The notes: generated by a model not told the origin, from the sequence alone. A stretch of 32,000 nucleotides of DNA from Clostridiales bacterium (GCA_014799665.1 JAAVHP010000010.1:1-32000); one strand, 5' to 3'; shown: positions 9,626 through 27,894, counted from the stretch's first letter. Numbers and translations are program-made.

Positions 9626-9661
9626 AATTATCCTTAATTCACAATTCACAAGTCTCAATTA
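9626..9661. repeat. AT-rich heptad array at the leuS stop codon
   Basis: aattatccttaattcacaattcacaagtctcaatta has 7-nt periodicity (CTTAATT CACAATT CACAAGT CTCAATT). It contains the AATTATCCTTA module also seen at 17548 and 27797. Confidence 0.6.
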
Positions 9662-12079
9662 AACCACAATATTCACAAGTCTATCGGGAATAACGATAAC
9701 CTTTTTAGGCATAGCGCCGGCAAGTGCTGCTTTAACCTCATCGTTATCGAGCGCGAACGCCGAAACCTCGTCGCGGCTCATGCCCTGCGGCACGACTATC
9801 TTGCAGCGGATACGCGAATTGATCTGTACGGCGTATTCGGTCGTGGCTTTTACAAGCTTGCTCTCGTCGAACGTCGGGTAGCTTTCGAGGAACACCGATT
9901 TTTTGCCGCCCATCATCTGATTGAGTTCTTCGCAGAAATGCGGTGCGAGCGGCGCCATAAGCTTTACGAGCACCTGCAAAACGTATTTAAGATACGCGGG
10001 GCTGTAACCGCTCTCGCCTCGATACTTGTATGCGGCGTTCACAAGCTCCATGAGCCGAGCCACGGCGGTGTTAAACCCGAACTCGGGAATGTCTTGGAGC
10101 AGCTCTTTAATGCAGTAGTTAAGCTCGTAATCGAGCGCGCCCGCCTTTCCGTCCGCCTTTTCGTCCTTGACTTCCAAAACGAGCCGCTCTATCCTATCCA
10201 TGAACTTGGCGCACGATACGATACCGCCGTCCGACCACGGACCGCCTTCCACGTAATCGAATCCGAACATCAAGTAAAGCCTGAGCGCGTCCGAGCCGTA
10301 CTTTTCTATAAGCGGATCGGCGGACACAACGTTGCCGCGCGTCTTGCTCATGCGGTAGCCGTCGGGACCCAGGATAACGCCCTGGTGAACGAGCCTTTTA
10401 AACGGCTCGTCGAAATCGAGATATTTAAGGTCGTGCAAGACCTTGTTTATAAACCGAGAATACAACAAGTGCGTGCAAGCGTGCTCGGGTCCGCCCACGT
10501 AGCAGTCCACGGGCAGCATGGCGTTGACCGTTTTCTTATTGAACGGCTCGCGGTCGTTATGCGCGTCGGGATAGCGCAGATAGTACCAGCTCGAACAAAC
10601 GAAGGTATCGAGCGTGTCCGTTTCGCGCTTGGCTTTTTTGCCGCAAACGGGGCAAACGGTTTCGACGAACTCGGGGCACTTTGTTAGCGGCGACTTTCCG
10701 TCGGGCGTAAAGTTCACGTCGTACGGCAGCGTTACGGGCAGATCCTTTTCGGGAACGGGCACCGCGCCGCAATGCTCGCAGTAAATAATGGGAATGGGCG
10801 CGCCCCAGTACCGCTGACGGGATACCGACCAGTCACGCATACGGTAATTGACCTTGCGCCCGCCGTGCCCGATCTTAGAAAGCTCGTCCAGAACGGCGAG
10901 CTTACCGTCCGCCGACTTCATACCGTCGAACTTGCCGCTGTTTACCATAACGCCGTACTCGGTATACGGTAATTCACACTCGCCCTTTTCGGCTTTGATG
11001 ACCTGCTTAATGGGCATATTATTCTTTATAGCGAACCCGTAGTCGCGCGTGTCGTGCGCGGCAACGCCCATGACCGCACCCGTGCCGTAAGTGCCTATGC
11101 AGTAATCGGCAATATATACGGGCACTTTCTCGCCGTTAATGGGATTAATGCAGTAGCAACCGAGGAACACGCCCGTCTTTTCCTTGCTGGTGGACGAACG
11201 CTCGATCTCGGACTGTTTGGCTGTTGCAAGCTTGTACGCTTCGACCGCCGCGCGCTGCTCATCGCTTACCAGAATATCCACGTACTTATGCTCGGGCGCA
11301 AGCACCACGTAGCTTACGCCGAACAACGTATCGGCGCGAGTTGTGAACACGGTGATGCTCTTAACGTCGCCGATCGGCTTTTCTAGGTCGAAAACTACTT
11401 CACCGCCCACCGACTTACCTATCCAGTTGCGTTGCATGGTCTTGGTCTTTTCGGGCCAATCGAGCGCGTCGATACCCTCCAAAAGCTTTTCGGCGTAATC
11501 GGTAATCTTAAAGAACCACTGGGTCATTTCCTTATGAACGACCTCTGTCTTGCAACGCTCGCACTTGCCGTCCACTACCTGCTCGTTGGCTATTACCGTT
11601 TGGCAGGACGGACAATAATTGACAGGCGCTTTCTTTTGGTAAGCGAGCCCGTTCTTGTAAAGCTGTAAAAACAGCCACTGCGTCCACTTGTAGTAATCGG
11701 GCGCGCAGGTACGGAACTCATGCGCCCAATCGACCATCGTGCCCATGTCGGCGAGCTGACGCTCCATCGTGGAGATATTGACGTCCGTCGAGTCCTTGGG
11801 GTGAACGCCCGTCTTAATGGCGTAGTTCTCTGCGGGAAGCCCGAACGCGTCGAACCCCATCGGCTGAAAAACGTTATAGCCGCGCATACGCATAAACCGC
11901 GCGTACGAATCGGCAATGCCGTAGTTATACCAATGCCCCATGTGAAGCTTTGCGCCCGACGGGTACGGAAGCATTTCGAGAACGTATTGCTTTTCGCCCT
12001 TCGCCTTGGGATCGAACGTGTTTATACCCGTTTCGTTCCAAATGCCTTGCCATTTCTTTTCGATTTCGTTATGGTTCAT
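9659..12079 (-). CDS. leuS: leucine--tRNA ligase
   Basis: 806 aa with an N-terminus [14 protein letters not shown] typical of LeuRS. It has an HMGH (HIGH-type) motif, an RMSKT (KMSKS-type) loop and CxxC zinc knuckles. GGAGA lies 5 nt upstream of the ATG. Confidence 0.97.
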
Positions 12080-12091
12080 TGTATCTCCGAT

Positions 12092-12141
12092 TAATGCGTA
12101 ATTCGTAATGCGTAATTCGTAATTACGGACCGCTTCGCGGT
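12092..12141. repeat. left arm of the heptad inverted repeat, plus a GC mini-hairpin
   Basis: TAATGCG TAATTCG TAATGCG TAATTCG TAATTACG (7-nt period) is followed by ACCGC-TTC-GCGGT (12129-12141). Nt 12092-12117 are the perfect reverse complement of 12549-12574. Confidence 0.85.
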
Positions 12142-12144
12142 TAA

Positions 12145-12489
12145 TTAATTATTTTGTGTCTTAGTTATTGCCATAAGTATTTTTATTAACTCTTGACATT
12201 CTGAATAAATGCCATTAAAAGCGCCGTCATCGACATAATCACATTCATGTAAAAGTTCCAACCAATACTCGGTTTCGCTTGCCTCTTTCAAAGAAATATT
12301 CAGTTTATTATAAAAATCCGATTTGCTTACGGCACGTATCGCTTCTTTTGCATTTGCACCGATACTTGTACCGCTACGCAAAAGCTGTTTTGACATTATA
12401 AATTCATGTTTTTCGTTTTGAATATCTTTAACGAAATTTACAATGTGTATTGCAAAAATTTTGCTCTTATCGACTATGGCGTTTCCCAT
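12145..12489 (-). CDS. four-helix-bundle protein (23S rRNA intervening-sequence protein / Avd family)
   Basis: 114 aa carrying [15 protein letters not shown] and [14 protein letters not shown], the hallmark blocks of PF05635/TIGR02436. The gene is visibly AT-rich (20 G+C in nt 12181-12240). GAGG lies about 9 nt upstream of the ATG. Confidence 0.85.
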
Positions 12490-12512
12490 ACTCTAAAACC
12501 TCGATCATTGAA

Positions 12513-12581
12513 TAATTCGCAATTACGCATTAACTTTAAATTGACCTTAATTACGCATTACGAATTACGCATTACGAATTA
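12513..12581. repeat. right arm of the heptad inverted repeat
   Basis: taattcgcaattacgcattaac ... ttaattacgcattacgaattacgcattacgaatta. A 26-nt perfect complement to the left arm lies at 12549-12574. An alternative 25-nt register pairs 12557-12581 with 12099-12123. Confidence 0.85.
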
Positions 12582-14540
12582 TTATAAATACTGCCACGAC
12601 GGACGCGTAAAGAAGTCTGTTTTAGGTTCGAGGAATTTAAGCGCGTGCGCTTTACCTACCAGCTCGCCCACGGGCTTGAATACGTTATCCCACGAATACA
12701 GCTGCGCGCTCGTAAGCCCCAAATATTCCCGCACCTTTTCGGTAGATACGGGCGCGATCGGGTGCGACAGCGCAGTAGCCGTTTTAATAAGGTGCAGCCC
12801 GTCGATTATCGTTTGCTTGAACTCCGCCTCGTTGAAGTCGTTTTGGAGTTTACTCATTCGCTCGGACAGCGTCTTATTAATATACTTGAAGAATTCTTCG
12901 AGCTCGATCATGACGTCCGCAAACTCGAATCTGTACATACGGTTTTCGTACCGAACGATTTGATCTTCGCACTTTTGCAAGATCTCGGCAGATACGGCGC
13001 CCTGCGGCACGGTATTGTCGCCGTTGTTGTATTTCTGGAACGAATAGAACAGCGTGCGCCCCGCGCGGTTGAGGAAGTTGGTGAACATCGACCATTCTTT
13101 ATATACGGGGTCTCCCTGGTTGGTCGGGTTGGGGTTATACGGCTTGGGCTGGAACGGAACGCTCGCGTTGCCCAGACCCAACCCGAAAAAGTGCGCACGC
13201 AACTGCTCCGCCGAATAGTGCGTCAACAGCTCCTGCGCCATGGGCGGTTTTATCTTGCCGCTGCTGCTCGCCTTGGCGTTAAAGAACAGGATATGTTTAT
13301 TGGGCACTATCGTCGGCATCTTGATATTCCAGTCGTTATCTGAGTTCAACGCCTCGAACAGCGCGCCCTCGGCGAGCGCATAGAAGTAAATATTATCCTC
13401 GCCGATAAACTGATAAACGCCCGCGTCGTCGCTGCACCAGTAATCGCGCCACGCGTCTTTCGGCTTGCCCACGCTTTCGAGATAGGCTTGCGTGAACGAA
13501 ATAGGCGCCCACAGCGATTCGGGCCACACCCAGAACGTGAGGTCTTTCATATCGCCCTCGTCGGGAATTTTCACGCCCCACTCGATATTTCCCGAAATAC
13601 GGAAAGGCACGAGCGTTTTCCCCGTGCGGAAGCGAATGCCGTTTTGAGCGAGCAACGTGCACGCGCTCTCGCGGTCTTTAAGTTTCTCGAATTCTACTTT
13701 GCAATTGTTCTTTTGCTCGTCCGCTTCGCAGGTATATTTAAGCTTGGACTTCGCCAAAATTTTCTCGACGGCTTCTTTGTTTTCGGTTTTGGTATACAGT
13801 GTCGGTTTATTAAGCGACTCTTTGCATACGTTGGTCAAGAACGCGCGGACCTTGGGATCGCCTTCCCATTTCTCTACAAGCTTTTTGAGGTACGGCGCGA
13901 ATTTTTCTATATCCAAATACCAGTTTTTAACGTCTTTAAGCACGGGCGGTTTCCCGGAAAGCGTGCTGACCGGCGCTATCAATTCCTCGGGGAAATACTG
14001 ATGCCCGAGCGAGCATTCGTCGGCGTAAGCCTGTTCGGACTTACAGCCGTTTATGGGGCACCTGCCCACCACTTGTCTGCCGTTGAGGAAGGTGCCGCGC
14101 TCCTCGTCGTAGAACTGCTTGGTGGAGAGCACGGACAACGCGCCGCTTTTGAGTAGCTTTTTAAACACCTCGCGCGACAGCTCGGCGTGCTTTCCGCCGC
14201 CTATCCCGAACGCCGAAGCGCCGAACAGCGACAAGCCTATAAGATAGTTATTGAGCGTATCGTTCTGGCTGTCGTGATTCTTTTTGACGAAATCTATTAT
14301 CGATCCGTCGAACTCGCCCGCAGCCGTAAGCGTGCGGTATTTTTCCACTATCGGCGAGCCGTAGCAATCTGTGCCCGAAACGAATATTACGTTCTCCTCG
14401 CCTATCCTGTCCTTCATGAACCGCGCAAAGACATCGGCGTGAACGAACACACCGCCTATATGCCCGAAATGCAGTTCCTTACTGCCGTAAGGCATACCGC
14501 CGGTTATAACTACGCGTTTGGGAAATTTCGGTCTTTCCAT
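12582..14540 (-). CDS. metG: methionine--tRNA ligase (no C-terminal tRNA-binding appendix; variant KMSKS loop KASSS)
   Basis: 652 aa with an HFGH (HIGH) motif, GTDCYGSPI, and a MetRS-type knuckle GRCPINGCKSEQAYADECSLGH. The blocks FWVWPESLWAPI and YQFIGEDNIYFY parallel E. coli YVWLDAPIGY and FIGKDIVYFH. GGTGGAG RBS. Confidence 0.8.
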   Translation of the reverse strand: MERPKFPKRVVITGGMPYGSKELHFGHIGGVFVHADVFARFMKDRIGEENVIFVSGTDCYGSPIVEKYRTLTAAGEFDGSIIDFVKKNHDSQNDTLNNYLIGLSLFGASAFGIGGGKHAELSREVFKKLLKSGALSVLSTKQFYDEERGTFLNGRQVVGRCPINGCKSEQAYADECSLGHQYFPEELIAPVSTLSGKPPVLKDVKNWYLDIEKFAPYLKKLVEKWEGDPKVRAFLTNVCKESLNKPTLYTKTENKEAVEKILAKSKLKYTCEADEQKNNCKVEFEKLKDRESACTLLAQNGIRFRTGKTLVPFRISGNIEWGVKIPDEGDMKDLTFWVWPESLWAPISFTQAYLESVGKPKDAWRDYWCSDDAGVYQFIGEDNIYFYALAEGALFEALNSDNDWNIKMPTIVPNKHILFFNAKASSSGKIKPPMAQELLTHYSAEQLRAHFFGLGLGNASVPFQPKPYNPNPTNQGDPVYKEWSMFTNFLNRAGRTLFYSFQKYNNGDNTVPQGAVSAEILQKCEDQIVRYENRMYRFEFADVMIELEEFFKYINKTLSERMSKLQNDFNEAEFKQTIIDGLHLIKTATALSHPIAPVSTEKVREYLGLTSAQLYSWDNVFKPVGELVGKAHALKFLEPKTDFFTRPSWQYL

Positions 14541-14565
14541 AAGACTCCACCTTTTTATTACTGCT

Positions 14566-16344
14566 TTATTCCAGTACAGCTTTGATTCTTCTTACACCCG
14601 CACTGCTCGACTGTTCTTTAACTATTCTGAAATGCCCGAGCTCGCCCGTGTGCGAGGCGTGCGGTCCGCCGCATATCTCCATGGAATACTTGCCCATGGT
14701 GTACACCTTGACTTTCTCGCCGTACTTGGACGTGAACAAGCCGACCGCGCCTTTCGCCTTGGCTTCGTCGACCGTCATCTCGTCGCAGGTGATAGTAACG
14801 TCGGCTTTGATCGCCGCGTTGACTTTATCCTCTACCGCCTTGACTTCTTCGGGGGTCATTGCCCGACCGAACGAGAAGTCGAACCTCAGCCGCTCGGGCG
14901 TAATATTACTGCCGCGCTGGTTGACTGTGGGATCGTTGAGCACTTCTTTAAGCGCTTGATGCATAAGGTGGGTCGCGGTATGCAGCCGCGCCGTAAGCTC
15001 TCCCGTATCTGCAAGCCCGCCTTTAAAGCGCTGTTCCGCACCCGCGTGTGAAAGATTGCGGTGCTCCTCGAACCGAGCGTTGAACCCGTCCACGTCCACC
15101 TTGAACCCGCGCTCTTTTGCAAGCTCGACCGTCATTTCGAGCGGGAAGCCGTACGTGTCGTAAAGCCTGAACGCCGACTTGCCGGGAATGGTGTCCGTTT
15201 GAAGGAACTTGACGAGCTTTTCGAACTCCTTCATGCCGTTTTCGAGGGTGCGCTCGAACCGCGCCTGTTCCTCGTCGATTTCGTGCTTTATCTTGTCGCG
15301 CGAAGCCACTAGCTCGGGATAGACCTCGGCGTAAATATCAACTACCACTTCGGCGATCTTTGAGTAATCGCCCGCTTTAAGCCCGATGCCCGAGCCGAAC
15401 CGAATAGCGCGGCGCAGAAGCCTGCGGAGAATATAGCCCTGGTCGACGTTGGACGGCGTAACGCCGCGCTCGTCGCCAATGATAAACGTGGAAGTTCTTA
15501 TATGGTCGGCGACGACGCGAATGGCCTTTACTTTCGTTTCGTCGTTCACGCTCGCGCCCGAAAGCTCCTCTATCTTTTTGACGATAGGCACGAACACGTC
15601 GGTGTCGTATACCGACTTCAAGCCCTGAACGTTCATTATAGCGCGTTCCAAGCCCATGCCCGTATCTACGTTCTTTTGTTTGAGCGGAGTGAAGCTGCCG
15701 TCGGCGTTCTTGTTGAACTCCATGAACACGTCGTTCCAAACCTCGATATACTTGCCGCAATCGCACGCGGGCGAGCAGGTATCGCTGCACTTGGGCTTAC
15801 CCGTGTCGAAGAACATTTCGGTGTCCGAGCCGCATGGACCGGTCTGACCTGCAGGGCCCCACCAGTTATGCTTTTTGCCGAGGAAGAAGATATTTTCTTT
15901 CTTGATCCCGCATTTTTCCCACAATGCTGCGGTCTTTTCGTCGCGCGGGCAGTCTTTATCGCCCTCGAACACAGTGACGGCGAGCCGATCGGGATCGAGC
16001 TTTAACACCTTAGTCAAGAACTCGTAGCTCCACGGCACCATCTCGTCCTTAAAGTAATCGCCGAGCGACCAGTTGCCGAGCATTTCGAAGAACGTGCAGT
16101 GCGCCGCGTCGCCTACCTCGTCGATATCGCCCGTGCGCACGCATTTCTGCGAATCGCAAAGCCTTTTACCCGCAGGGTGCGGCTGACCCAAAAGGTACGG
16201 AACGAGCGGGTGCATTCCCGCCGTCGTGAACAGAACGGTGGGGTCGTTTTCGGGAATGAGCGACGCCGACGAAATGGGCGTGTGTCCGCGCTCGATGAAA
16301 AAGTCCATCCATTTTTTTCTGAGCTCTTTGCTTGTAAGTTTCAT
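14566..16344 (-). CDS. alaS: alanine--tRNA ligase, compact 592-aa form lacking the C-Ala domain
   Basis: I start it at ATG 16344 (MKLTSKELRKKWMDFF...), with GGAG 7 nt upstream. AlaRS core blocks are present: FTTAGM, FFEMLGNWSLGDYFK, GPCGSDTEMFFD, VDTGMGLER. Editing motifs are HTATH (aa 455-459) and CGGPH (aa 558-562). The protein ends at GVRRIKAVLE. Confidence 0.9.
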   Translation of the reverse strand: MKLTSKELRKKWMDFFIERGHTPISSASLIPENDPTVLFTTAGMHPLVPYLLGQPHPAGKRLCDSQKCVRTGDIDEVGDAAHCTFFEMLGNWSLGDYFKDEMVPWSYEFLTKVLKLDPDRLAVTVFEGDKDCPRDEKTAALWEKCGIKKENIFFLGKKHNWWGPAGQTGPCGSDTEMFFDTGKPKCSDTCSPACDCGKYIEVWNDVFMEFNKNADGSFTPLKQKNVDTGMGLERAIMNVQGLKSVYDTDVFVPIVKKIEELSGASVNDETKVKAIRVVADHIRTSTFIIGDERGVTPSNVDQGYILRRLLRRAIRFGSGIGLKAGDYSKIAEVVVDIYAEVYPELVASRDKIKHEIDEEQARFERTLENGMKEFEKLVKFLQTDTIPGKSAFRLYDTYGFPLEMTVELAKERGFKVDVDGFNARFEEHRNLSHAGAEQRFKGGLADTGELTARLHTATHLMHQALKEVLNDPTVNQRGSNITPERLRFDFSFGRAMTPEEVKAVEDKVNAAIKADVTITCDEMTVDEAKAKGAVGLFTSKYGEKVKVYTMGKYSMEICGGPHASHTGELGHFRIVKEQSSSAGVRRIKAVLE

Positions 16345-16373
16345 GATTATTCTCCGAACTATTTTCTTCCTTC

Positions 16374-16509
16374 TTTGAAAAGAAGGAAGCGAAGAAACTT
16401 TTAAGTTGGGGTTAATGTGGTTTACGTTGCTTTTTCTTCCTGTCATTCTGAACGTTAGCGAAGAATCTCTGCCGCTTTTGAAAAGAAGTAAGCAAGAAAA
16501 CTTTAAGTT
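16374..16509. repeat. pair of ~33-nt direct repeats in the alaS upstream region
   Basis: 16374-16407 is tttgaaaagaaggaagcgaagaaacttttaagtt. 16477-16509 is tttgaaaagaagtaagcaagaaaactttaagtt. Copy 1 forms the 10-bp hairpin CTTCCTTCTT/AAGAAGGAAG (16366-16389) just upstream of the alaS RBS. Confidence 0.7.
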
Positions 16510-16538
16510 ATAATATTTTCAAAAAATTCGACCGCAAC

Positions 16539-16647
16539 GTTCGGCAAAGCCGAACATATCACGCGGCGAACGCCGCATTTCACAACCGCAAACGGTTATA
16601 TCATATACGCCTTAGCGTATATATCACTGCGCAACGCAACATTGCGC
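16539..16647. repeat. array of five different GC-rich hairpins joined by a conserved 7-nt linker
   Basis: H1 16539-16555 (7 bp, AAA loop); H2 16563-16576 (5 bp, GAAC); H3 16584-16597 (5 bp, CAAA); H4 16605-16620 (6-8 bp, CTTA); H5 16629-16647 (6 bp). The linkers are atatcac, atttcac, atatcat and atatcac. Confidence 0.8.
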
Positions 16648-16648
16648 T

Positions 16649-17491: not shown

Positions 17492-17508
17492 ACTATCCTC
17501 CAAATAAC

Positions 17509-17594
17509 AATTAGGAATTAAGAATGATTGACCGCTTCGCAGTGATTCAATTATCCTTATTAATTCCTAATTACTAATTACTAATTCCTAATTA
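17509..17594. repeat. heptad inverted-repeat hairpin element with a GC apex (no cargo)
   Basis: Left arm is aattaggaattaagaatgattga. The apex accgcttcgcagt (17531-17543) is a 1-mismatch copy of 12129-12141. Right arm is tgattcaattatccttattaattcctaattactaattactaattcctaatta. The outer 13 bp (AATTAGGAATTAA) are perfectly complementary. Confidence 0.8.
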
Positions 17595-20660: not shown

Positions 20661-20689
20661 ATTATATAGCAAACCCGAAGATTTGTCAA
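20661..20689 (-). promoter_or_regulatory. consensus sigma-70 promoter for the MFS-like gene and fhs
   Basis: Minus strand reads TTGACA (20689-20684), a 17-nt spacer, then TATAAT (20666-20661). Confidence 0.6.
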
Positions 20690-21514
20690 TTATATTGGTT
20701 CAGAATTATCCTGCGGTTTAGCAAACAACTCGATAGATAGCGCGCCGTCATCCTGCACGCCGTCCACGGTAACACGTTTAAGCCTCTTGGATAGAGCGAT
20801 TTTCTTTTCTATCTCGCGGTACTCGTCCATGCTCGAAAAGTCGGCAGTCGAGCGTATGACCGCGACCGATCCGCTCGACACTAAGTTGGAAAGCCGCAAC
20901 GCCGCCGCGTTGCCGTCGCCGCCCGCAAGCAGTAACGCCTTGTACGCATTGTCGAGCGTTTTCACATTGGGAAGAGCCTGTGCGACGGTATCTACGCGCT
21001 CATCGAAAAGGCTGTCTACCGTCAAAAGATATCCACGGTTAAACTTTATGGGCATCGCCTTTTCCTCATCCTCGGCTAGGAATCGTGTAAACCCGTAACA
21101 GCACAGCGCGGCAAACACTATATACACGAGCACGCCGATAAGAATACGCACCGCCAAAATATCGTATACGGCTTTTATCATGACGTCGACGACGAACGCG
21201 AAAACACCCGCCGTCACGAGCCCGAGCACGACCGCCGCTACGCCCTTGCCGCCGAGCGCGGACAACTCAGAACCGACCACGCCGCGCACGCTAACGAACA
21301 GATTATAAAGCGGCTTAGCCGATAAGCCCAGGAGCGCCGCCAGGGCGAGCGCAGAAACTATTATAACGATTATGCGAAACTCCTCGCGCATCACCTGCGG
21401 ATAGAAAACGAAATACTGCCATACCGCAGTACCGCCTACCGCCGCACCGAGCGCAATGAGCGCCGCGCGCAGGATTATCAGTTTCTTTTTGTCGTATTTA
21501 TTGTCGGATTTCAT
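20690..21514 (-). CDS. YacL-like integral membrane protein (4 TM plus a degenerate PIN-like domain, no TRAM domain)
   Basis: 274 aa with an AAGGAG RBS. Four N-terminal TM helices are followed by YLLTVDSLFDERV...RLSNLV...KKIALSKRLKRVTVDG, which parallels B. subtilis YacL ILDTSVIIDGRI...LDILNRI...KLVKLAKLTSGVVVTND as I recall it. Confidence 0.45.
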   Translation of the reverse strand: MKSDNKYDKKKLIILRAALIALGAAVGGTAVWQYFVFYPQVMREEFRIIVIIVSALALAALLGLSAKPLYNLFVSVRGVVGSELSALGGKGVAAVVLGLVTAGVFAFVVDVMIKAVYDILAVRILIGVLVYIVFAALCCYGFTRFLAEDEEKAMPIKFNRGYLLTVDSLFDERVDTVAQALPNVKTLDNAYKALLLAGGDGNAAALRLSNLVSSGSVAVIRSTADFSSMDEYREIEKKIALSKRLKRVTVDGVQDDGALSIELFAKPQDNSEPI

Positions 21515-21528
21515 ATATCTCCTTTTTC

Positions 21529-21569
21529 GCCTTCCCCAATTGGGGAAGGTGCCCGAAGGGCGTCGGGCA
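21529..21569. repeat. 20-bp perfect palindrome module, copy A, with an adjacent hairpin
   Basis: gCCTTCCCCAATTGGGGAAGGtg (21529-21551) is identical to 27814-27836. It is followed by TGCCCGA-AGGGCG-TCGGGCA (21550-21569). Confidence 0.85.
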
Positions 21570-21575
21570 TTATTT

Positions 21576-21612
21576 AATTACGAGCGGAGCGAGTCCGTAA
21601 TTCTTAATTCAC
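21576..21612. repeat. AATTACG-stem hairpin and heptads at the recD2 stop
   Basis: AATTACG agcggagcgagtc CGTAATT (21576-21602) is followed by cttaattcac. The recD2 TAA lies at 21604-21606. Confidence 0.6.
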
Positions 21613-23784
21613 ATCTCCGTACAGCTTAGTCATTCCCGCCTTAGCGTCGTCTATAAACACATTAAGCGCGGAGAACCGCTCGGCTACGTAGTTATTATCG
21701 ACCATGCGCTTGACCGCATACTCGTCGCCGACGAGTACCGCCATTTTCTTGGCGCGAGTGATAGCCGTGTACAAAAGATTGCGCGTCATAATTACGGGCG
21801 CCCCCACGATGACCGGCATTACCACCGCGTCGAACTCACAGCCCTGACTCTTATGCACAGTCACCGCGTAGGATAAAATAAGCTGACGGCGGTTTTCGCC
21901 CGCGTACAGTACGCGCCGCCCGTCCTCGAACTCAACTTCGATCTCGCCGGTATCGAACACATGCACCACTATTCCTATATCGCCGTTAAAAACGCCCACG
22001 CCGCTCGCGCTACCGCGCGACCATTCGAGCTCGTAGTTGTTCACGGTATGCATAACGCGGTCGCCTTCAATAAACGTGCAGTCGCCGACAACCACCTTTT
22101 TCTTCGCGCCGGCGTTGAGCGCGGCTTGAAGCCGAGTGTTAAGAGTATGCACGCCGCACACGCCGTTTTTGAGCGCCGCTATCACTTGGATACGGTGCGG
22201 CTCTATTCCGCAGAACCCCGTTATGCGCGTCGTGGCGAGCTGAACCGTCATGTCCGCAATCTCCTGCGCCGACCGCATACGGAAGAAAAAGAAATCGCCG
22301 TCGCGCGCCGTAAGGTCGGGGACCTTGCCGTCGTTTATCTCGTGCGCGCTTACCGCTATTCGGCTCGTGTTCGACTGACGGTAAATAAAGCTAAGCCGCG
22401 TTACGGGCACGAGCCCGCTCGCTATAAGATCGCGAAGCACATTGCCTGCCCCTACCGACGGGAGCTGATCGGCGTCGCCGACCACGATAAGTTTTGTTGC
22501 GTCGCTCATGTGGTCGAGCAAGTTTTTGTAGAGGAAAATATCGACCATGGAAAACTCGTCTACAATTACCGCGTTCGCGTCGAACTTGGCGCCGTCTTCG
22601 AGCATAAGCACCGCGCGGTGAATTGTAGATGCGTCTCTGCCGCAACCCTCTGTAATACGCTTGGCGGCTCTACCCGTCGGCGCGAGCAAAGTCGCAGTAA
22701 GAGAGAGCGCGTCGAGCACGAAAAGTATACAGTTGATAATAGTGGTCTTGCCCGTGCCCGGTCCGCCCGTAATCACGGACGCGCCGTGGGTCACGGCGTT
22801 AACGACCGCTTCGCGTTGCGCCGCATGCAGCGTTATATTCTCCGTCTTTTCGAACCTATCTATTACATCATTCACGTCGACGGGAACTATACCCGACGCA
22901 TCCACGCGCCTGACCGTCTTAACCGCCGCCGCGCGTTCGGTGCGGTAATACAGCTCGCCCATAACGGCGCCCTCGAACGGAATAACGACCTTACGCGCGA
23001 TCATGAGCGAATCGAGCGCACGCACAAGCCCGTCCTCGTCGTAGCGCACGAGCAGTTTTTTTGCCTCGTCGAACAGCTTATCTTTCGGCAGATAAGTATT
23101 GCCCTCTTTCTCGCACGACGAGCCCAGCGCGTGAACTATCCCCGCGCGCATACGGAAATCGCTAAGCGGGTCAATACCCATCGACTGCGCGATCTTATCG
23201 GCGGTGAGAAAGCCCACGCCGTCCACGTCCTCGACGAGAACGTACGGATTGCTCTTGACGGTGGAAACGGTAGAAGCGCCGTACACCGAATACAGTTTGA
23301 GCGCAAGATTGACCGACACGCCGTAGCCCGCGAGAAACATAATCGCCTCGCGCTGAGCACGGAGCGCGCCGAAGCTCTCCGCTATTTTGACCGCCTTCTT
23401 AGGGCTTATGCCGCGGATCTCGGAAAGTCTTTCGGGCGTTTTTTCTATTATTTCGATAGCGTCCACGCCGAACTTATCGACGATACGCGCAGCCGTTTTT
23501 TCGCCCACGCCCTCGATAAGCCCCGAGCCGAGAAACCGTATGATCCCGTACTCGCTGCGCGGCGCGGCAATGGACGCGCGTTCGGCTTTGAACTGCGTGC
23601 CGAACTTGGGATGAATGACAAACTCGCCTTCAAGCTCGATAAAATCGCCCGGCGTGACAGGCGGAAGCGTGCCCGCCACTGTAACGGGATCGCCGTCACT
23701 GTCGAGCACAAGCACTGTCCAGCCGTTTTCATCGTTGCGAAAACGTATTTCTTCAACCGAACCCGAAAGCCTGTCCAAAATCAA
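21604..23784 (-). CDS. recD2: RecD2-type SF1B ATP-dependent DNA helicase
   Basis: 726 aa with Walker A GGPGTGKTT, Walker B VDEFSMVD, TVHKSQG near the C-terminus and an N-terminal OB/HhH-like region. The TTG start overlaps the metK TGA (TTGA at 23781-23784). Confidence 0.9.
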   Translation of the reverse strand: MILDRLSGSVEEIRFRNDENGWTVLVLDSDGDPVTVAGTLPPVTPGDFIELEGEFVIHPKFGTQFKAERASIAAPRSEYGIIRFLGSGLIEGVGEKTAARIVDKFGVDAIEIIEKTPERLSEIRGISPKKAVKIAESFGALRAQREAIMFLAGYGVSVNLALKLYSVYGASTVSTVKSNPYVLVEDVDGVGFLTADKIAQSMGIDPLSDFRMRAGIVHALGSSCEKEGNTYLPKDKLFDEAKKLLVRYDEDGLVRALDSLMIARKVVIPFEGAVMGELYYRTERAAAVKTVRRVDASGIVPVDVNDVIDRFEKTENITLHAAQREAVVNAVTHGASVITGGPGTGKTTIINCILFVLDALSLTATLLAPTGRAAKRITEGCGRDASTIHRAVLMLEDGAKFDANAVIVDEFSMVDIFLYKNLLDHMSDATKLIVVGDADQLPSVGAGNVLRDLIASGLVPVTRLSFIYRQSNTSRIAVSAHEINDGKVPDLTARDGDFFFFRMRSAQEIADMTVQLATTRITGFCGIEPHRIQVIAALKNGVCGVHTLNTRLQAALNAGAKKKVVVGDCTFIEGDRVMHTVNNYELEWSRGSASGVGVFNGDIGIVVHVFDTGEIEVEFEDGRRVLYAGENRRQLILSYAVTVHKSQGCEFDAVVMPVIVGAPVIMTRNLLYTAITRAKKMAVLVGDEYAVKRMVDNNYVAERFSALNVFIDDAKAGMTKLYGDVN

Positions 23785-24947
23785 TACACCGCTTTGATCT
23801 TCTGAACGCTGTCGAGCTGTTCCCAGGGCAAGTCGCGTTTGCCGAAATGCCCGTAGTTAGTCGTCTTTCTGTAAATGGGGTTCCTAAGCCCGAGCTTCTC
23901 TATGAACGCCGCTGGACGGAAGTCGAACACCTTTTCGACCGCCGCTTTTATCTTAGAGTCGTCGCCCGTGCCGAACGTGTCGACGAACAGCGAAACGGGC
24001 CGAGCCTTACCTATCGCGTACCCGACCTGGATCATCACGCGCGAGCACAACCCCGCCGCAACGAGGTTTTTGCACACGTACCGCGCGTAGTAGGACGCCG
24101 AGCGGTCGACCTTAGAAGCGTCCTTACCGCTGAACGCGCCGCCGCCGTGCGGGATCGCGCCGCCGTAGGTATCGACGATTATCTTTCTGCCGGTAACGCC
24201 GGTATCGCCCGCGGGCCCGCCCACTACGAACCGCCCCGTCGGGTTGATAAGTATCTCCGCGCCCTTCAACATTTTTTCGGGCACGACCTTTTTTATAACG
24301 CTTTCGTAAATGCCGTCTTTGAGCTTTTTATCGCTTACGTCGGGCGAATGCTGCGCCGACACGACTACCGTTTTTACGCCGACGGGAACGTTATCCTCGT
24401 AGGCAAGCGAAACCATCGCCTTGCCGTCAGGGCGCAGAAAATCAAGCTCGCCGCTCTTTCTCACCTCGGCGAGCCTACGGGTGAGCGAGTGCGCGAGCGT
24501 GAGCGGCATGGGCATGAGCTCGTCGGTCTCAGAGCACGCGTAGCCGAACATCATACCCTGATCGCCCGCGCCTACCGCGTCGTAGGGATCGGCGGAGCTG
24601 AGCGTTCGGGTTTCGAGCGAGTTTATAACGCCCTGCGCAATGTCGGGCGACTGACCGTTGATGCAGTTAAGCACGGCGCAGGTCGTAGCGTCGAAGCCAA
24701 GCTCGGGATGAGTATACCCCACCTCGGCAATGGTCGAGCGCGCTATCTTTTGCACGTCGATAAAATCGGTCTGAGTATCGAACTCGCCGAGTACTACGGC
24801 AAGCCCCGTCGCACAGCACACCTCGCACGCAATGCGGCTGTTCGCGTCCTTTTCGAGCGCCGCGTCGAGCACGGAGTCCGCTATATAATCGCAAACTTTA
24901 TCGGGATGTCCTTCGGTCACGCTTTCCGACGATACTATTCTTTGCAT
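23781..24947 (-). CDS. metK: S-adenosylmethionine synthetase
   Basis: 388 aa starting MQRIVSSESVTEGHPDKVCD, with GAGDQGMMFGYA and full-length MetK resemblance. Confidence 0.97.
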   Translation of the reverse strand: MQRIVSSESVTEGHPDKVCDYIADSVLDAALEKDANSRIACEVCCATGLAVVLGEFDTQTDFIDVQKIARSTIAEVGYTHPELGFDATTCAVLNCINGQSPDIAQGVINSLETRTLSSADPYDAVGAGDQGMMFGYACSETDELMPMPLTLAHSLTRRLAEVRKSGELDFLRPDGKAMVSLAYEDNVPVGVKTVVVSAQHSPDVSDKKLKDGIYESVIKKVVPEKMLKGAEILINPTGRFVVGGPAGDTGVTGRKIIVDTYGGAIPHGGGAFSGKDASKVDRSASYYARYVCKNLVAAGLCSRVMIQVGYAIGKARPVSLFVDTFGTGDDSKIKAAVEKVFDFRPAAFIEKLGLRNPIYRKTTNYGHFGKRDLPWEQLDSVQKIKAVY

Positions 24948-24982
24948 AAGTAAACACTTCCTAAAATATTATTAACTATCAT

Positions 24983-25011
24983 ATAATACAATAATGCTAT
25001 CCCTTTGTCAA
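24983..25011 (-). promoter_or_regulatory. sigma-70-type promoter for metK-recD2
   Basis: Minus strand reads TTGACA (25011-25006), a 17-nt spacer, then TATTAT (24988-24983). The leader is only ~30 nt. Confidence 0.55.
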
Positions 25012-25062
25012 GTCCGGAGCAAAGATACACGCTCTGAACCTAAATTAATTAAAGAATAGCTA

Positions 25063-25091
25063 TTGACAAATACAATATAAAATGATATAAT
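25063..25091 (+). promoter_or_regulatory. perfect consensus extended -10 promoter for the plus-strand gene
   Basis: TTGACA (25063-25068), a 17-nt spacer ending TGA, then TATAAT (25086-25091). GGAGGA lies at 25115-25120 and the ATG at 25134. Confidence 0.65.
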
Positions 25092-25133
25092 ATCAAACAG
25101 CAAATAAAAACCACGGAGGAATTTGAAACAAAC

Positions 25134-25991
25134 ATGGAAGCATTTTTGGAAGCGCTCGATAATTTTTTCGGCAAGCTTTTTAAAAGCGGCGAAGCAGACC
25201 CCGCAAAGGCTTGGCGCGATTGGGGTTACGACTACATATCGGTAGTCATGCTCATTCTTGTCGTCGTCGCAGTCGTGCTTATTCTGACTATCATTATCGC
25301 GGCTATTGTCGGCGTTAAGAACAAGAAGAAGCGAAAAGCGTTGCAAGAGCAAAACGACAAGCTGTCGGCTGTCGAACCGCTACGCGACAGCGGCGAGCTT
25401 CGCGCCGAGATCCGTGCCGAAATGGAACCCATTATCCGCGAACAGGTCGACAGAGAGTACAGGGAACGCTACGCCAAGGAAGAACCCAAGGCTAAGGAAG
25501 TTAAAAAAGAACAGTCGAAAGAGCAACCCAAGGAGCAGCCGAAAGAGGATAAACAAACGGAAGAGCTTCGCTCTATGATAGTCGATATTCACTCGACCAC
25601 TCAGGACCTTAAAGAACAGATCGAAACGCTCACCGCCGAAAACACCGCGCTCAAAAACGAGGTCGCGGCGCAAAACGAGCAAGCGGCAGAGGACGAAAAG
25701 CCCGCTAAAAAGACGGCTAAAAAGCCCGCACCCGCTCCTGTCGAAGACGAGGACGATTACGGCGAAGACGAATACGACAATGAGTACGGCGACGAAAATT
25801 CGGCATTGCAGGTATCCGTCCAGTACGACAGAATGAAAATGAACTGGGTGGTATTGCGCTCCGACTCGCCGAGAACGTACCGCCGTTGCGACACCAAGCA
25901 GGAAGCGCTGCCGCTCGCAAAAGACCTTGCAAAACGCCTTCACGCACAGCTCGTCGTCCACAAAAAAGACGGAAAGTTCCAAAAGATTTAA
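25134..25991 (+). CDS. membrane-anchored coiled-coil protein with a C-terminal DUF2188-like domain
   Basis: 285 aa with a TM helix ISVVMLILVVVAVVLILTIIIAAIVGV, a K/E-rich coiled-coil and an acidic stretch. The C-terminus WVVLRSDSPRTYRRCDTKQEALPLAKDLAKRLHAQLVVHKKDGKFQ resembles DUF2188 (PF09954). Confidence 0.75.
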   Translation: MEAFLEALDNFFGKLFKSGEADPAKAWRDWGYDYISVVMLILVVVAVVLILTIIIAAIVGVKNKKKRKALQEQNDKLSAVEPLRDSGELRAEIRAEMEPIIREQVDREYRERYAKEEPKAKEVKKEQSKEQPKEQPKEDKQTEELRSMIVDIHSTTQDLKEQIETLTAENTALKNEVAAQNEQAAEDEKPAKKTAKKPAPAPVEDEDDYGEDEYDNEYGDENSALQVSVQYDRMKMNWVVLRSDSPRTYRRCDTKQEALPLAKDLAKRLHAQLVVHKKDGKFQKI

Positions 25992-25994
25992 TTC

Positions 25995-26025
25995 AATTAG
26001 GAATTGTGAATTAGGAATTAGAAAT
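25995..26025. repeat. 31-nt heptad array, perfect copy of 27740-27770
   Basis: aattaggaattgtgaattaggaattagaaat = AATTAGG AATTGTG AATTAGG AATTAGA AAT. Confidence 0.9.
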
Positions 26026-26036
26026 TATCACAAAAC

Positions 26037-26071
26037 AAAAATTAGGAGTTCAATCGAGCTCCTAATTTTTT
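26037..26071. terminator. bidirectional rho-independent terminator between the convergent plus-strand gene and proS
   Basis: A 12-bp stem pairs 26040-26051 with 26056-26067 (one G.U on the plus strand) around an AATC loop. An A-run precedes it and a T-run follows. Confidence 0.65.
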
Positions 26072-26103
26072 GTTTATTGACTTATTTAAATGAACGTATT
26101 ATT

Positions 26104-26225
26104 GAGTGCGTAGTCGCGGCGCAGACGGGCAACAGTTAGCGAGCCGCCGACGGGAGTGTAGACCCACCTACATGACCAAGGCGGCGAGCTAAGCGTAGCC
26201 CGTATCCGCCGATGAATACGCGCTC
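26104..26225. ncRNA. candidate structured RNA element (cloverleaf-like four-helix fold), family and strand unknown
   Basis: This is a GC-rich non-coding stretch between the proS stop and the terminator. P1 pairs 26104-26112 with 26217-26225 (9 bp). P2 pairs 26113-26120 with 26143-26151 (8 bp, one bulge). P3 pairs 26156-26161 with 26168-26173. P4 pairs 26180-26184 with 26206-26210. Confidence 0.25.
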
Positions 26226-27669
26226 AATACGCGCGCGCAAAGTAAATGCGCTTTTTCGCTTTCTTCCCGCAGCAAACGCATTTATGCTTTTCCACACCCG
26301 ATTGATCGGCGTGCATAACGCGGCTTGTCGCAGAATAGGTCTGTTTGATTTTCTCCTCGCATTCCCTATCGCCGCACCAGTACGCGTCGGTAAAGTTGCC
26401 GCCGTCGAGCGCCGCGCCCATCTCGTCGAGGTTATTGACCTTTACGATATGATCTTGCGTGAATTTAGCCGCCTTGTCGAGCATATTCTTTCTTATGGTC
26501 TCTAAAAGCTCGGTCGCGCCATTAACCACGCCGTCCAAAGGCATAGTGAACTTCTCAGCAGTATCGCGGCGGCAAACGGTAACGACGCCTGCTTCTATAT
26601 CTCGCCCGCCGAGTTCCATTCTTACGGGCACGCCGCGAAGCTCCCAATGGTTGAACTTAAACCCGGGCGACTGGTCGCGGTTATCCACCGTAACGCGCAC
26701 GCCAGCCTTAACCAGATCGGCTTTAATCGCTTCTGCTTTATCGGCAACTGCGTGGTTCTTTACCGCGCCGATAGGAATAATAACGACCTGAACGGGCGCA
26801 ACGGGCGGCGGCAGGCACAGTCCGCGCTCGTCGCCGTGCGCCATAATGATAGCGCCTATAAGCCGCGTGGAAATGCCCCAGCTCGCCTGGTACGCGTACT
26901 TATGCGTGCCGTCCTTGTCCAAGAACTTAATATCGAACGCCTTGGCGAAATTCTCGCCGAGGTAGTGCGTAGTGCCGGCTTGAAGGCTTTTGCCGTCTTT
27001 CATCATCGCTTCCATACCGTACGTAGCGACCGCACCCGCAAACTTCTCTTTTTCGGACTTCTGCCCGACAAGCACGGGCAAGCACAGAACGTCGTTGGCA
27101 AGCTCCTTGTACACGCCGAGCATAGTGAGCGCGTCGGCGTTCGCTTCCTCGGCGGAAGCAAACACGGTATGACCTTCCTGCCACAAAAACTCGCTCGTTC
27201 TGAGGAACGGGCGTGTGGTTTTCTCCCACCGCACAACGTTCGCCCACTGATTGAGTTTAAGCGGAAGATCGCGGTACGAGCTTATCCACTTAGAATACAT
27301 ATTGCCGATGATCGTCTCAGACGTAGGACGAAGCACGAGCTTTTCGCCGAGCTCGGTATCGCCTACGTGCGTGACAGTCGCAACCTCTGGCGCGAACCCT
27401 TCCACGTGCTCGGCTTCGCGCATAAGGAATGTTTGCGGTATGAGCATGGGGAAATACGCGTTCTCGACGCCCTGCGCCTTGAACCGTTTATCCGCTTCGG
27501 CTTGAATACGCTCCCAGATCGCGTAACCGTACGGGCGAAAAACCATAGTGCCCTTAACGGGACCGTAATCGCACAGCTCCGATTTAAGGCAAACGTCGGT
27601 ATACCACTTAGTGTAGTCGGTATTGATGTCGGCTATCTGATTGACAAATCTGTCGTTCTTTTCTGCCAT
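26224..27669 (-). CDS. proS: proline--tRNA ligase, archaeal/eukaryote-like type with a C-terminal zinc-binding domain
   Basis: 481 aa starting MAEKNDRFVNQIADINTDYTKWYTDV, with class II motifs. The C-terminus is YWCGDRECEEKIK...KCVCCGKKAKKRIYFARAY. Confidence 0.95.
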   Translation of the reverse strand: MAEKNDRFVNQIADINTDYTKWYTDVCLKSELCDYGPVKGTMVFRPYGYAIWERIQAEADKRFKAQGVENAYFPMLIPQTFLMREAEHVEGFAPEVATVTHVGDTELGEKLVLRPTSETIIGNMYSKWISSYRDLPLKLNQWANVVRWEKTTRPFLRTSEFLWQEGHTVFASAEEANADALTMLGVYKELANDVLCLPVLVGQKSEKEKFAGAVATYGMEAMMKDGKSLQAGTTHYLGENFAKAFDIKFLDKDGTHKYAYQASWGISTRLIGAIIMAHGDERGLCLPPPVAPVQVVIIPIGAVKNHAVADKAEAIKADLVKAGVRVTVDNRDQSPGFKFNHWELRGVPVRMELGGRDIEAGVVTVCRRDTAEKFTMPLDGVVNGATELLETIRKNMLDKAAKFTQDHIVKVNNLDEMGAALDGGNFTDAYWCGDRECEEKIKQTYSATSRVMHADQSGVEKHKCVCCGKKAKKRIYFARAY

Positions 27670-27699
27670 GATAAGCTCCGTATAATTTAATTATATAAG

Positions 27700-27728
27700 A
27701 GTTTATCACAATAATCGAAAACAGTCAA
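27700..27728 (-). promoter_or_regulatory. candidate promoter for proS
   Basis: Minus strand reads TTGACT (27728-27723), a 17-nt spacer ending TGA, then TAAACT (27705-27700). GGAG lies at 27679-27676. Confidence 0.45.
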
Positions 27729-27739
27729 GCAATATAATT

Positions 27740-27812
27740 AATTAGGAATTGTGAATTAGGAATTAGAAATGATTGACCCCTACGGGGTAATTTTCTTAAT
27801 TGTATCCTTATT
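27740..27812. repeat. 31-nt heptad array (copy 2) plus GC mini-hairpin and AATTGTATCCTTA module
   Basis: 27740-27770 is identical to 25995-26025. It is followed by gattg ACCCC-TAC-GGGGT (27776-27788) and taattttcttaattgtatccttattt. Confidence 0.85.
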
Positions 27813-27813
27813 T

Positions 27814-27853
27814 GCCTTCCCCAATTGGGGAAGGTGGCACGGCGTAAGCCGTG
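27814..27853. repeat. 20-bp perfect palindrome module, copy B, with an adjacent GNRA hairpin
   Basis: gCCTTCCCCAATTGGGGAAGGtg (27814-27836) is followed by CACGGC-GTAA-GCCGTG (27838-27853). Confidence 0.85.
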
Positions 27854-27864
27854 ACGGATGAGGG

Positions 27865-27894
27865 CATAATTCATAATTACTAATTCCTAATTAC
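27865..27894. repeat. heptad array inverted relative to 27740-27770, at the bofA stop
   Basis: The reverse complement of cataattcataattactaattcctaattac is gtaattaggaattagtaattatgaattatg. It matches the left array at 22 of 28 aligned positions, including the first 11 (AATTAGGAATT). Confidence 0.75.

Follow-up and report, generated by a model that had tools for sequence, protein, structure and literature searches.

A 32,000-nucleotide (nt) stretch of DNA from a Clostridiales bacterium (GCA_014799665.1, JAAVHP010000010.1:1-32000; here called the window) contains a family of intergenic elements built from tandem 7-nt repeats (heptads), one of which, between metG and leuS, encloses a gene for a four-helix-bundle (4HB) protein within two inverted heptad arrays, its arms. 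We found that genes of this protein family are nearly always framed by co-varying inverted heptad arrays; this holds for no fewer than six phyla and, for the most part, outside rRNA. Across the 4HB loci, the 7-nt period and the complementarity of the arms are conserved; the AATT core of the window's repeats is not. The window elements are a variant, located in mRNA spacers, of the S23p-type intervening sequence (IVS) known from 23S rRNA, together with heptamer pairs of the type described in Xanthomonas; that the 4HB family is generally coupled to inverted heptad arms that co-vary seems not to have been described before. On balance, we lean toward reading the window elements as IVS-type cassettes and ORF-less miniatures (ORF, open reading frame) whose arms fold into RNase III-type stems within the transcripts of operons. 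The window makes up the final 32 kb of a contig of 207 kb, has a GC content of ~53%, and carries nearly all of its genes on the minus strand; all positions are counted from its first letter.

The 4HB cassette spans 12080-12581 on the minus strand and exactly fills the interval from the metG stop codon to the leuS ribosome-binding site; both genes share its orientation. In the sense direction, it follows the order metG stop, 2 nt, 5' arm, short leader, 4HB ORF, GC mini-hairpin, 3' arm, GGAG, and leuS ATG. The 5' arm, (TAATTCG/TAATGCG)n at 12549..12581, starts 2 nt past the metG stop (12582-12584); Tandem Repeats Finder (TRF) reported it with a period of 7/14 and 100% matches, it is a perfect complement of 12092-12123, and it forms the outer ~30-bp stem of the minimum free energy (MFE) structure. 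Between this arm and the 4HB start lies a shorter inner heptad stretch, AATTCGCAATTACGCATT (12511..12534, minus strand; pattern match at 12514-12531), which is also paired in the MFE structure and lengthens the stem. The 4HB ORF (12145..12489, minus strand, 114 aa) is followed by the mini-hairpin (sense ACCGCGAAGCGGT, 12128..12142, minus strand), located between the 4HB stop and the 3' arm (12092..12127, minus strand). This arm ends 12 nt ahead of the leuS ATG (12079), leaving only the GGAG ribosome-binding site free. The whole 4HB gene is the loop of a ~30-bp perfect stem (26 to 30 bp), with an MFE of -136.8 kcal/mol.

Profile and structure matches identified the encoded protein as 23S rRNA-IVS/S23p/Avd-like. 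The ORF at 12145-12489(-) matched Pfam PF05635 (the "23S rRNA-intervening sequence protein" family; E = 2.8e-25) and NCBIfam TIGR02436 (E = 2.7e-30), and the closest solved structure was PDB 2RLD (E = 2e-33). The protein has thousands of homologues at 65 to 74% identity in gut Clostridia and Bacteroidales, and 34 columns were invariant across 39 sequences. It had no match in the PADLOC defence library; a single-protein scan of viral contigs gave no match, and alignment-based scans were successful. A preliminary description of the window had correctly placed a protein gene in the loop at 12 kb but had missed its identity as a member of the 23S rRNA-IVS family. Because the cargo gene belongs to PF05635/TIGR02436, the design is tied to a described element, the rRNA IVS.

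We examined 97 loci encoding relatives of this protein (38 to 68% identity), 74 of which had at least 200 nt of flanking sequence on both sides. TRF identified 209 period-7 arrays in the 97 loci, in addition to 50 arrays of period 14 and 23 of period 21, while periods 6, 8, 9, and 10 yielded only 10 to 21 arrays each. A period-7 array was found within 200 nt of the 4HB ORF in 71/74 loci and on both sides in 54/74, at distances of mostly 0 to 40 nt. The repeats comprised 29 distinct 7-nt units, including AATTCGG, AATTCAT, AATTGAC, and AATGCGT, and further 4HB loci had GACAGTT-, CAAAGCA-, and GGAATGC-type units. The preliminary description had taken the AATT core to be the mark of the family, a view that this diversity of units overturns, since the period and the arm complementarity are what relatives keep. 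The reverse complement of the 5' unit was identical to the 3' unit in 28 of 59 loci and within 1 nt of it in 51 of 59, compared to 4.7% and 18%, respectively, for a between-locus null. Similarly, the median arm pairing score was 17.5 within loci and 7 between loci. The arms also showed a modest polarity, with G exceeding C in 5' arms (41 versus 24) and the reverse in 3' arms.

The layout recurred in widely different settings. In four distinct contexts (Faecousia and Bacteroidales restriction-modification [R-M] operons), the 4HB gene was co-oriented between host genes with heptad arrays on both sides, for instance, between a methylase gene and ResIII or between HsdS and HsdR. A locus from the Patescibacteria (candidate phyla radiation [CPR]) had the same layout with GTTCACN units. 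Complete records of cultured strains were comparable: Nostoc punctiforme pNPUN01 had GTCGGAG units, Bernardetia had 17 copies of TTAGTGA, Treponema saccharophilum had the same combination of 4HB gene and heptads, and the layout was also found around the 4HB gene between drmD and MmeI in Planktothrix agardhii and between hsdS and hsdR in Monoglobus pectinilyticus. The 4HB cassettes were often located inside defence operons (L003-L009, L260, and L261) and were always co-oriented there, within methylase-ResIII, hsdS-hsdR, and DISARM drmD-MmeI-type arrangements. In N. punctiforme pNPUN01, the cassette was directly upstream of xisH/xisI genes; TAACTGA heptamer repeats and XisH/XisI have been described as having a common phylogenetic distribution (MacGregor, PMC4679880).

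We determined positions relative to start and stop codons from 41 4HB loci with both arms and long flanks. The gene upstream of the cassette was co-oriented in 33/38 cases, and a co-orientation of the 4HB gene with its neighbors at this frequency makes invertons unlikely. The upstream stop codon was within 4 nt on either side of the array start in 23/33 cases, and most of the others had the stop inside the array; the downstream start codon was mostly 1 to 21 nt past the 3' arm. The window follows this rule on both strands: the stops of leuS (9659), metG (12582), fhs (17592), and a BofA-like ORF (27891; Pfam score marginal, at 25.5 bits versus a cut-off of 26.1) are each 0 to 3 nt from an array, as is the stop of a plus-strand DUF2188 gene (25989). 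The preliminary description had listed the first four of these stops, which hold, and that of recD2, where there is no heptad array. The arrays of three syntenic relatives likewise started at stop codons, with offsets of -2 to +1 nt, at the leuS, fhs, alaS-like, and S15-peptidase genes. Stop codons in all three frames, considered as a cause of the 7-nt period, were present in 28 of 67 5' arms and 13 of 73 3' arms, where shuffled units would give 42.5 and 39, respectively; the 4HB arms are depleted for them, and we rejected this explanation.

Over the whole window, TRF reported seven period-7 arrays (9636-9660, 12092-12124, 12549-12581, 17557-17594, 25995-26027, 27740-27770, and 27865-27894) and no others in the full 32 kb. 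A search for three AATTNNN units followed by AATT, with up to 2 mismatches, returned 15 matches, compared to 0.03 expected from dinucleotide shuffles, and all of the AATTNNN period-7 matches were in intergenic spacers. The strict 7-nt periodicity noticed in the preliminary description is therefore real at five of its six loci. At the sixth, 21576-21612, neither TRF nor the pattern search found an array, only a single AATTACG...CGTAATT hairpin and GC hairpins. The array it gave at 9626-9661 is present by TRF but is short and degenerate (3.6 copies, 83% matches) and has a weak partner arm. No heptad element had a match in Rfam, even at E <= 1, and Rfam found no rRNA in the window; likewise, no CRISPR, tRNA, or tmRNA was found there, and the heptad repeats are contiguous, without spacers.

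The arms within each paired locus were complementary, as had been noted. At 12 kb, 12092-12117 and 12549-12574 are complementary over 26 nt at 100%; at 17.5 kb, complementarity is 81% over 27 nt, with an outer stem of 13 bp that is perfect. The arm match at 27.8 kb (27739-27765 and 27867-27893) is 85% over 27 nt. Some complementarity between any two arms is to be expected, because AATT reads identically on both strands; information on pairing is confined to the 3-nt spacers of the heptads, which match perfectly at 12 kb and only partially at 27.8 kb. RNA folding gave z scores of -5.7, -5.0, and -2.6 for the 12-kb, 27.8-kb, and 17.5-kb elements, respectively, with the arms paired in long stems. 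The arrays do form a family of stems with variable cargo, as the preliminary description had proposed.

The elements at 17.5 and 27.8 kb, both on the minus strand, do not enclose an ORF. The mini-element at 17.5 kb has a 5' arm of (AATTAGG/AATTAGT)n units (17548..17594; 5.4 copies by TRF) that overlaps the fhs stop (17592-17594), an apical GC mini-hairpin (17530..17543), and a 3' arm (17502..17526) followed by a GGAGG ribosome-binding site and the start of an epimerase gene (17503). Its mini-hairpin at 17531-17543 differs by one base from that at 12129-12141, so that the near copy noted earlier is confirmed, and a three-copy alignment places the same module at 12128..12142 and at the apex of the 17.5-kb and 27.8-kb elements. 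The composite element at 27.8 kb has a 5' arm (27865..27894; TRF period 7/14) overlapping the stop of the BofA-like ORF (27891-27893) and a 3' arm (27733..27771). Its cargo (27776..27853) consists of a GC hairpin (27776-27788), the palindrome CCTTCCCCAATTGGGGAAGG (27815-27834), and a second GC hairpin (27838-27853). The 3' arm is 97% identical over 34 nt to a solo array, AATTAGG AATTGTG AATTAGG AATTAGA (25995-26028), which belongs to the array at 25992..26028 on the plus strand, directly past the TAA stop of the DUF2188 gene, and is followed by a bidirectional terminator (26037-26070). The degenerate solo or half array at 9.6 kb (9626..9661, minus strand) overlaps the leuS stop (9659-9661) and is likewise followed by a terminator (9533-9559). 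Finally, the spacer between recD2 and the next gene is filled by a composite hairpin insert (21515..21603, minus strand) that is not heptad-periodic; the CCTTCCCCAATTGGGGAAGG palindrome is found in it, along with a GC hairpin and a single AATTACG/CGTAATT hairpin.

We compared the window with three syntenic contigs, including L229, L230, and L231, whose MetG orthologues are 86 to 90% identical. The spacer between metG and leuS is 502 nt in the window, with the 4HB gene, and 55, 191, and 196 nt in the relatives, where the 4HB gene is missing and a short solo heptad run or a GC-rich palindrome is found instead. In L230 (11960-12155) and L231 (11960-12150), this spacer holds a GC-rich imperfect palindrome of ~190 nt and then 2 to 3 heptads before the leuS ribosome-binding site; this is a different hairpin element at the site of the 4HB cassette. 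The spacer after recD2 is 89 nt in the window and 17 to 21 nt in the three relatives, and the insert at 21515..21603 is thus an insertion relative to related genomes despite lacking heptads. Between fhs and the epimerase gene, where the window has a stem element, the relatives have a 40-nt solo heptad array, unrelated GC hairpins, or plain sequence. Conversely, the spacer between the alaS-like gene and metG is 25 nt in the window and 100 nt in L230, where it contains a heptad array and a module like the 27.8-kb cargo of the window, and other spacers in the relatives hold arrays that the window lacks. Presence/absence differences, which the preliminary description had proposed to look for between strains, are found here between relatives, with spacers of 17 to 55 nt or other inserts at the sites of the window elements; elements are gained and lost between close relatives. 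MetG, Fhs, and LeuS have equal lengths across the relatives, apart from 1 to 3 residues, which indicates that the elements sit at the stop codon and not inside the genes.

Several sequences are shared among elements. The 34-nt array is 97% identical between the 25995 and 27740 loci, and a 27-mer of it also occurs at locus L076 of an unrelated Clostridia metagenome-assembled genome (MAG), so that defined arrays can be copied as units. Heptads together with AATGATTGACCGCTTCGCGGT are common to the 12-kb, 17.5-kb, and 27.8-kb elements, in which the module takes the form of heptads, (A/T)ATGATTGACC-GC-hairpin, and (G/A)ATT; a half version of the ATGATTGACC hairpin module follows leuS in the relative L229. 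This ~45-nt module, at only 65 to 72% identity, supports a relationship between the full cassette and the miniatures. It may reflect either gene loss or gene insertion into a hairpin, without telling the order. The perfect 20-nt palindrome CCTTCCCCAATTGGGGAAGG occurs twice in the window (21530-21549 and 27815-27834), each time beside a GC hairpin, and the alaS-like/metG spacer of L230 has a related module, CACCTTCCCC..GGGAAGG, with GCCCTCATCCG. The CCTTCCCCAATTGGGGAAGG module resembles a further mobile element of small size, one that travels whether or not heptad arms accompany it. In the uncultured Clostridia MAG, L076 has nested heptad elements (1985-2240 and 6340-6770) in which (TAATTCC)n arrays lie, together with GC hairpins, between outer arms of (ATTAGCA)n/(TGCTAAT)n, an arrangement that suggests that the elements insert into one another.

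The closest described counterpart of the cassette is the S23p IVS of Coxiella burnetii, Leptospira, Brucella, and Haemophilus (PMC4990558). In the C. burnetii 23S rRNA, the IVS has an S23p ORF and a 28-bp terminal inverted-repeat stem, with 2 to 3 tandem GACAGAT heptamers upstream of the ATG, their number depending on the strain; RNase III cuts the stem at the first repeat in vitro, with ends mapped by RACE (rapid amplification of cDNA ends) (PMC4990558). In both systems a PF05635 protein is encoded in the loop, terminal inverted repeats bracket the ORF and form a stem of ~28 to 30 bp, tandem heptamers lie beside the start codon (in copy numbers that vary in Coxiella), and the ORF lacks its own promoter and is, or in the window would be, transcribed with the host gene. 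In contrast, the window cassette lies between metG and leuS and not in helix 25/45 of the 23S rRNA, its relatives are found inside R-M or DISARM operons, and it is accompanied by ORF-less miniatures and solo arms. Excision by RNase III has been demonstrated for the Coxiella IVS and would extend to the window by analogy.

The preliminary description had known of no repeat family of this design, a claim that does not hold: the GGGAATC heptamers of Xanthomonas, which form 70 to 75 convergent pairs between aligned ORFs and are transcribed (Rehm et al. 2015, PMC4692102), share the design of the window's ORF-less stems. Their G-rich strand lies on the coding strand, separated from the stop codon by at most 50 bp or overlapping it, their length differs between related genomes (as does that of the Nostoc GGGGA(C/T)T repeats), and they were read as formers of G-quadruplexes, with no link drawn to S23p or 4HB genes (PMC4692102). 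The window arrays resemble them in having 7-nt units in convergent pairs between co-oriented ORFs and in having the G-rich strand on the sense side at the stop, as in the AATTAGG/AATTGTG/AATTCGT-type arms. Unlike the Xanthomonas units, AATTAGG, AATTCGT, and AATTGTG have no run of three or more Gs and cannot form a G-quadruplex. Apart from the Coxiella description, we found no paper linking PF05635/4HB genes to heptad arms.

Under the reading that we favor, the promoter-less 4HB cassette would be transcribed as part of the host operon, and its arms would pair into a ~30-bp perfect double-stranded RNA stem. RNase III would then cut the stem, by homology with the Coxiella 23S rRNA cassette, freeing the 4HB mRNA as a panhandle and separating the neighboring messages, each left with a paired end. 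The exact fit between stop codon and ribosome-binding site could allow such insertions to persist. The elements at 17.5 and 27.8 kb would be the same stems closed over a GC mini-hairpin or small modules instead of a gene, with the function of the stem kept, and the arrays at 26.0 and 9.6 kb would be solo or half arms. Arm units and copy number would evolve fast, probably through slippage and correction of one arm against the other, with the 7-nt period and the complementarity kept. Here we infer RNase III cleavage, the derivation of the miniatures from full cassettes, and the spread of the elements.

It is important to note that several results weigh against this reading. Cleavage in the window organism is argued from homology, and the derivation of the miniatures depends on the ~45-nt module. 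Among the non-Watson-Crick positions of 58 arm pairs, sense G:U-type mismatches were not in excess over A:C-type mismatches (29 versus 30). There is thus no signature of selection specific to the sense RNA, and the complementarity could be a property of the DNA; it may be kept by slippage and hairpin-templated correction, not by RNA selection. The commonest arm mismatches, G opposite A and T opposite C, came from unmatched AATT/AATG unit order, which leaves many stems imperfect. At the elements, we found no signature of mobility, be it a transposase, a target-site duplication, or another. Moreover, a scan of the representative genomes in GTDB for runs of five AATT cores, spaced 7 nt apart, gave at least 120 loci. 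Among the matches listed, these were found in Bacteroidota, Cyanobacteria, Ignavibacteria, Acidobacteriota, Planctomycetota, Chloroflexota, CPR, Clostridia, and others. Small ORFs within 300 nt were tested for ~110 AATT-type arrays from other genomes, and among the matches listed only 1 of 80 such ORFs was PF05635 by Pfam, so that heptad arrays cannot all be markers of 4HB genes; also among the matches listed, 33 of 134 arrays had an inverted partner at a distance of up to 700 nt, compared to 8 for a composition-matched null. With so few PF05635 ORFs and partners, most heptad arrays in nature are not cassette arms. The linkage is one-way: nearly all 4HB genes have arms, and most arrays have no 4HB gene nearby. 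Within the matches listed, arrays abutted a stop codon in 41 cases and a start codon in 15, in line with the enrichment at gene 3' ends that the preliminary description had expected, and the G-rich strand was on the sense side in 27 cases versus 13.

Some of these points would fit a mobile element acting at the level of DNA. In that case, the arms would be terminal inverted repeats, or hairpin or cruciform substrates for a trans-acting recombinase or a replication-linked process; their complementarity would come from the making or repair of arms by hairpin-templated correction and not from an RNA function, and the RNA stem would be incidental. We consider this unlikely, although it deserves weight for the presence/absence polymorphism between close relatives, the occurrence of the 34-nt array at two loci (97%) and of its 27-mer in another genome, the lack of a G:U over A:C bias, and the 70% protein identity between Clostridia and Bacteroidales copies, which points to horizontal spread. 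It is difficult to reconcile with the lack of a linked transposase or recombinase, with no target-site duplications being seen at the elements, with arm sequences that vary (29 units) beyond recognition by a sequence-specific enzyme, and with the 33/38 co-orientation and the exact fit from stop codon to ribosome-binding site, which point to a constraint at the level of the transcript. The preliminary description had offered a miniature inverted-repeat transposable element (MITE)-like carrier or a processing element of the 3' untranslated region as possibilities; both are close to our favored reading, and the elements do behave like insertions. Like MITEs and like repetitive extragenic palindromes (REPs) and bacterial interspersed mosaic elements (BIMEs), they are short palindromic intergenic inserts at gene 3' ends that vary between strains and are able to form stem-loops. 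Tested as MITEs, they had inverted arms, but there was no linked transposase and no duplication evident against the shorter spacers of the relatives. Unlike MITEs, they appear to lack transposase-type terminal repeats, their arms are 7-nt periodic and differ between copies, and whole elements differ, with only the 34-nt array (97%) and the ~45-nt module (65 to 72%) shared between loci. Unlike REPs and BIMEs, they share no consensus beyond the heptad period, and the window has no RAYT-like gene. A role as REP-like 3' stabilizers or terminators, in which stems past the stop codon block 3' exonucleases or end transcription, seems highly improbable to us: arrays do lie at gene 3' ends (stop 41 versus start 15 among the matches listed), and intrinsic terminators come after the solo arrays at 9.6 and 26.0 kb, but the stems at 12, 17.5, and 27.8 kb have no sense-strand U-tract, unlike intrinsic terminators, and lie inside apparent operons right before the next ribosome-binding site. 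In addition, the enclosed gene would be left unexplained.

The arrays could also be functionless heptanucleotide simple sequence repeats (SSRs) produced by replication slippage, with stems resulting from AT-richness and the self-complementarity of AATT. An excess of heptamer SSRs in the intergenic DNA of bacteria is known (Mrazek 2007, as cited in PMC4679880 and PMC4692102), Coxiella strains differ in copy number (PMC4990558), and AATT heptads occur in many phyla, mostly as solo arrays, among the GTDB matches listed. Nonetheless, this is a very unlikely account of the whole family, and for paired arrays it is already contradicted by the flank, pairing-score, and unit-match counts: the 3-nt spacers are complementary too (26 to 30 bp perfect at 12 kb), arms of non-AATT units are equally complementary, arrays flank 71/74 4HB genes on at least one side, and period 7 far exceeds neighboring periods. 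Further, the units within one young array differ (AATTCGG, AATTAGG, and AATGCGG), which simple slippage does not give. Cyanobacterial short tandemly repeated repetitive (STRR) sequences were reportedly described by Mazel in 1990. The window arrays resemble these, long SSRs (LSSRs; Mrazek 2007), and the TAACTGA repeats of Beggiatoaceae, Cyanobacteria, and Bacteroidetes (PMC4679880) in being tandem 7-nt intergenic units, and the phylum range of these known repeats (Cyanobacteria and Bacteroidota) overlaps that of our GTDB scan. A difference is that TAACTGA repeats occur for the most part in direct orientation, immediately upstream of start codons, and provide stops in all three frames, whereas the window arrays are inverted pairs at stop codons and 4HB arms are depleted for such stops. 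Heptads might instead be binding sites for a pentameric 4HB (Avd-like) protein or for a cold-shock-type protein that autoregulates the cassette or its neighbors. We regard this as quite unlikely, given that units are highly variable where the proteins are 55 to 70% identical, which makes sequence-specific recognition unlikely, and that most arrays among the matches listed lack a nearby 4HB gene; it would account for the strict physical linkage of 4HB gene and arms and is consistent with the strong conservation of the protein (34 invariant columns in 39 sequences), with the Avd-like assignment of PF05635 (PMC10053308), and with binding of heptamer repeats by CspB (as cited in PMC4679880). No reverse transcriptase (RT) domain was found among the scanned window proteins or the neighbors of homologues. 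Avd is a pentameric nucleic-acid-binding four-helix bundle that binds RT and RNA in diversity-generating retroelements (DGRs). The window protein is homologous to Avd, and the Avd-like family in CDD covers PF05635 (PMC10053308). Unlike in DGRs, neither the window gene nor the relatives sampled have an RT, a template repeat, or a variable repeat nearby.

A wider reading, tentative and on present evidence rather improbable, is that PF05635/S23p genes and their heptad arms are distinct, widespread, promoter-less cassettes that ride on host transcripts and are excised by RNase III, with the protein acting in trans on arrays. If so, the 4HB protein would create, maintain, or use arrays, and scattered solo and paired repeats would be its footprints. 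Such a role would account for the excess of intergenic heptanucleotide repeats (STRR/LSSR) in Cyanobacteria, Bacteroidota, Xanthomonas, and others; S23p would at the same time gain a function. To our knowledge, the S23p (4HB) protein of the 23S rRNA IVS has been without a function since the early 1990s, and we know of no explanation for intergenic heptanucleotide repeats, which have drawn notice from 1990 on and whose over-representation was shown in 2007. With 4HB genes coupled to heptad arms, both of these old questions can be tested in carriers amenable to culture, such as Nostoc punctiforme, Planktothrix, Monoglobus, and Bacteroides. The elements would presumably split the transcripts of operons for housekeeping and for R-M/DISARM. 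Among gut Clostridia, they make spacers polymorphic at the strain level, and they can mislead gene calling at stop codons.

A few further observations concern the elements or their surroundings. The GC mini-hairpins at 12128-12142, 21548-21571, and 27776-27788 are terminator-like on the plus strand, which is the antisense strand of the genes, owing to the AT-rich heptads that come after them. Antisense transcription might end at these hairpins, and on the sense strand they have a GCGAAGC-type loop. Locus L114 (4122-4749) has two direct (AATTCTG)4 arrays 560 nt apart in a helicase-like coding region, on the opposite strand, which is either an unusual intragenic placement or an assembly artefact. 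The arrays in the window cluster among housekeeping genes, including the aminoacyl-tRNA synthetase-type genes leuS, metG, proS, and alaS-like. The next 9.6 kb of the contig, beyond window position 32000 (L227, 1-9639), had no AATT heptad array and encodes a serine recombinase, ABC transporters, and a LytTR regulator. The sole Rfam match in the window was a Gut-1 RNA (RF01706, 56 bits; 16551-16629, minus strand), located in a 202-nt spacer (16447-16648) with ~5 GC hairpins and ATATCAC-like linkers. This spacer is only 30 to 34 nt in the three syntenic relatives, and the Gut-1 motif thus behaves as an insertion polymorphism. Finally, a 1801-aa ORF (3406-8811, minus strand) has many internal DNA repeats at multiples of ~66 to 69 nt and probably encodes a repeat-domain surface protein.

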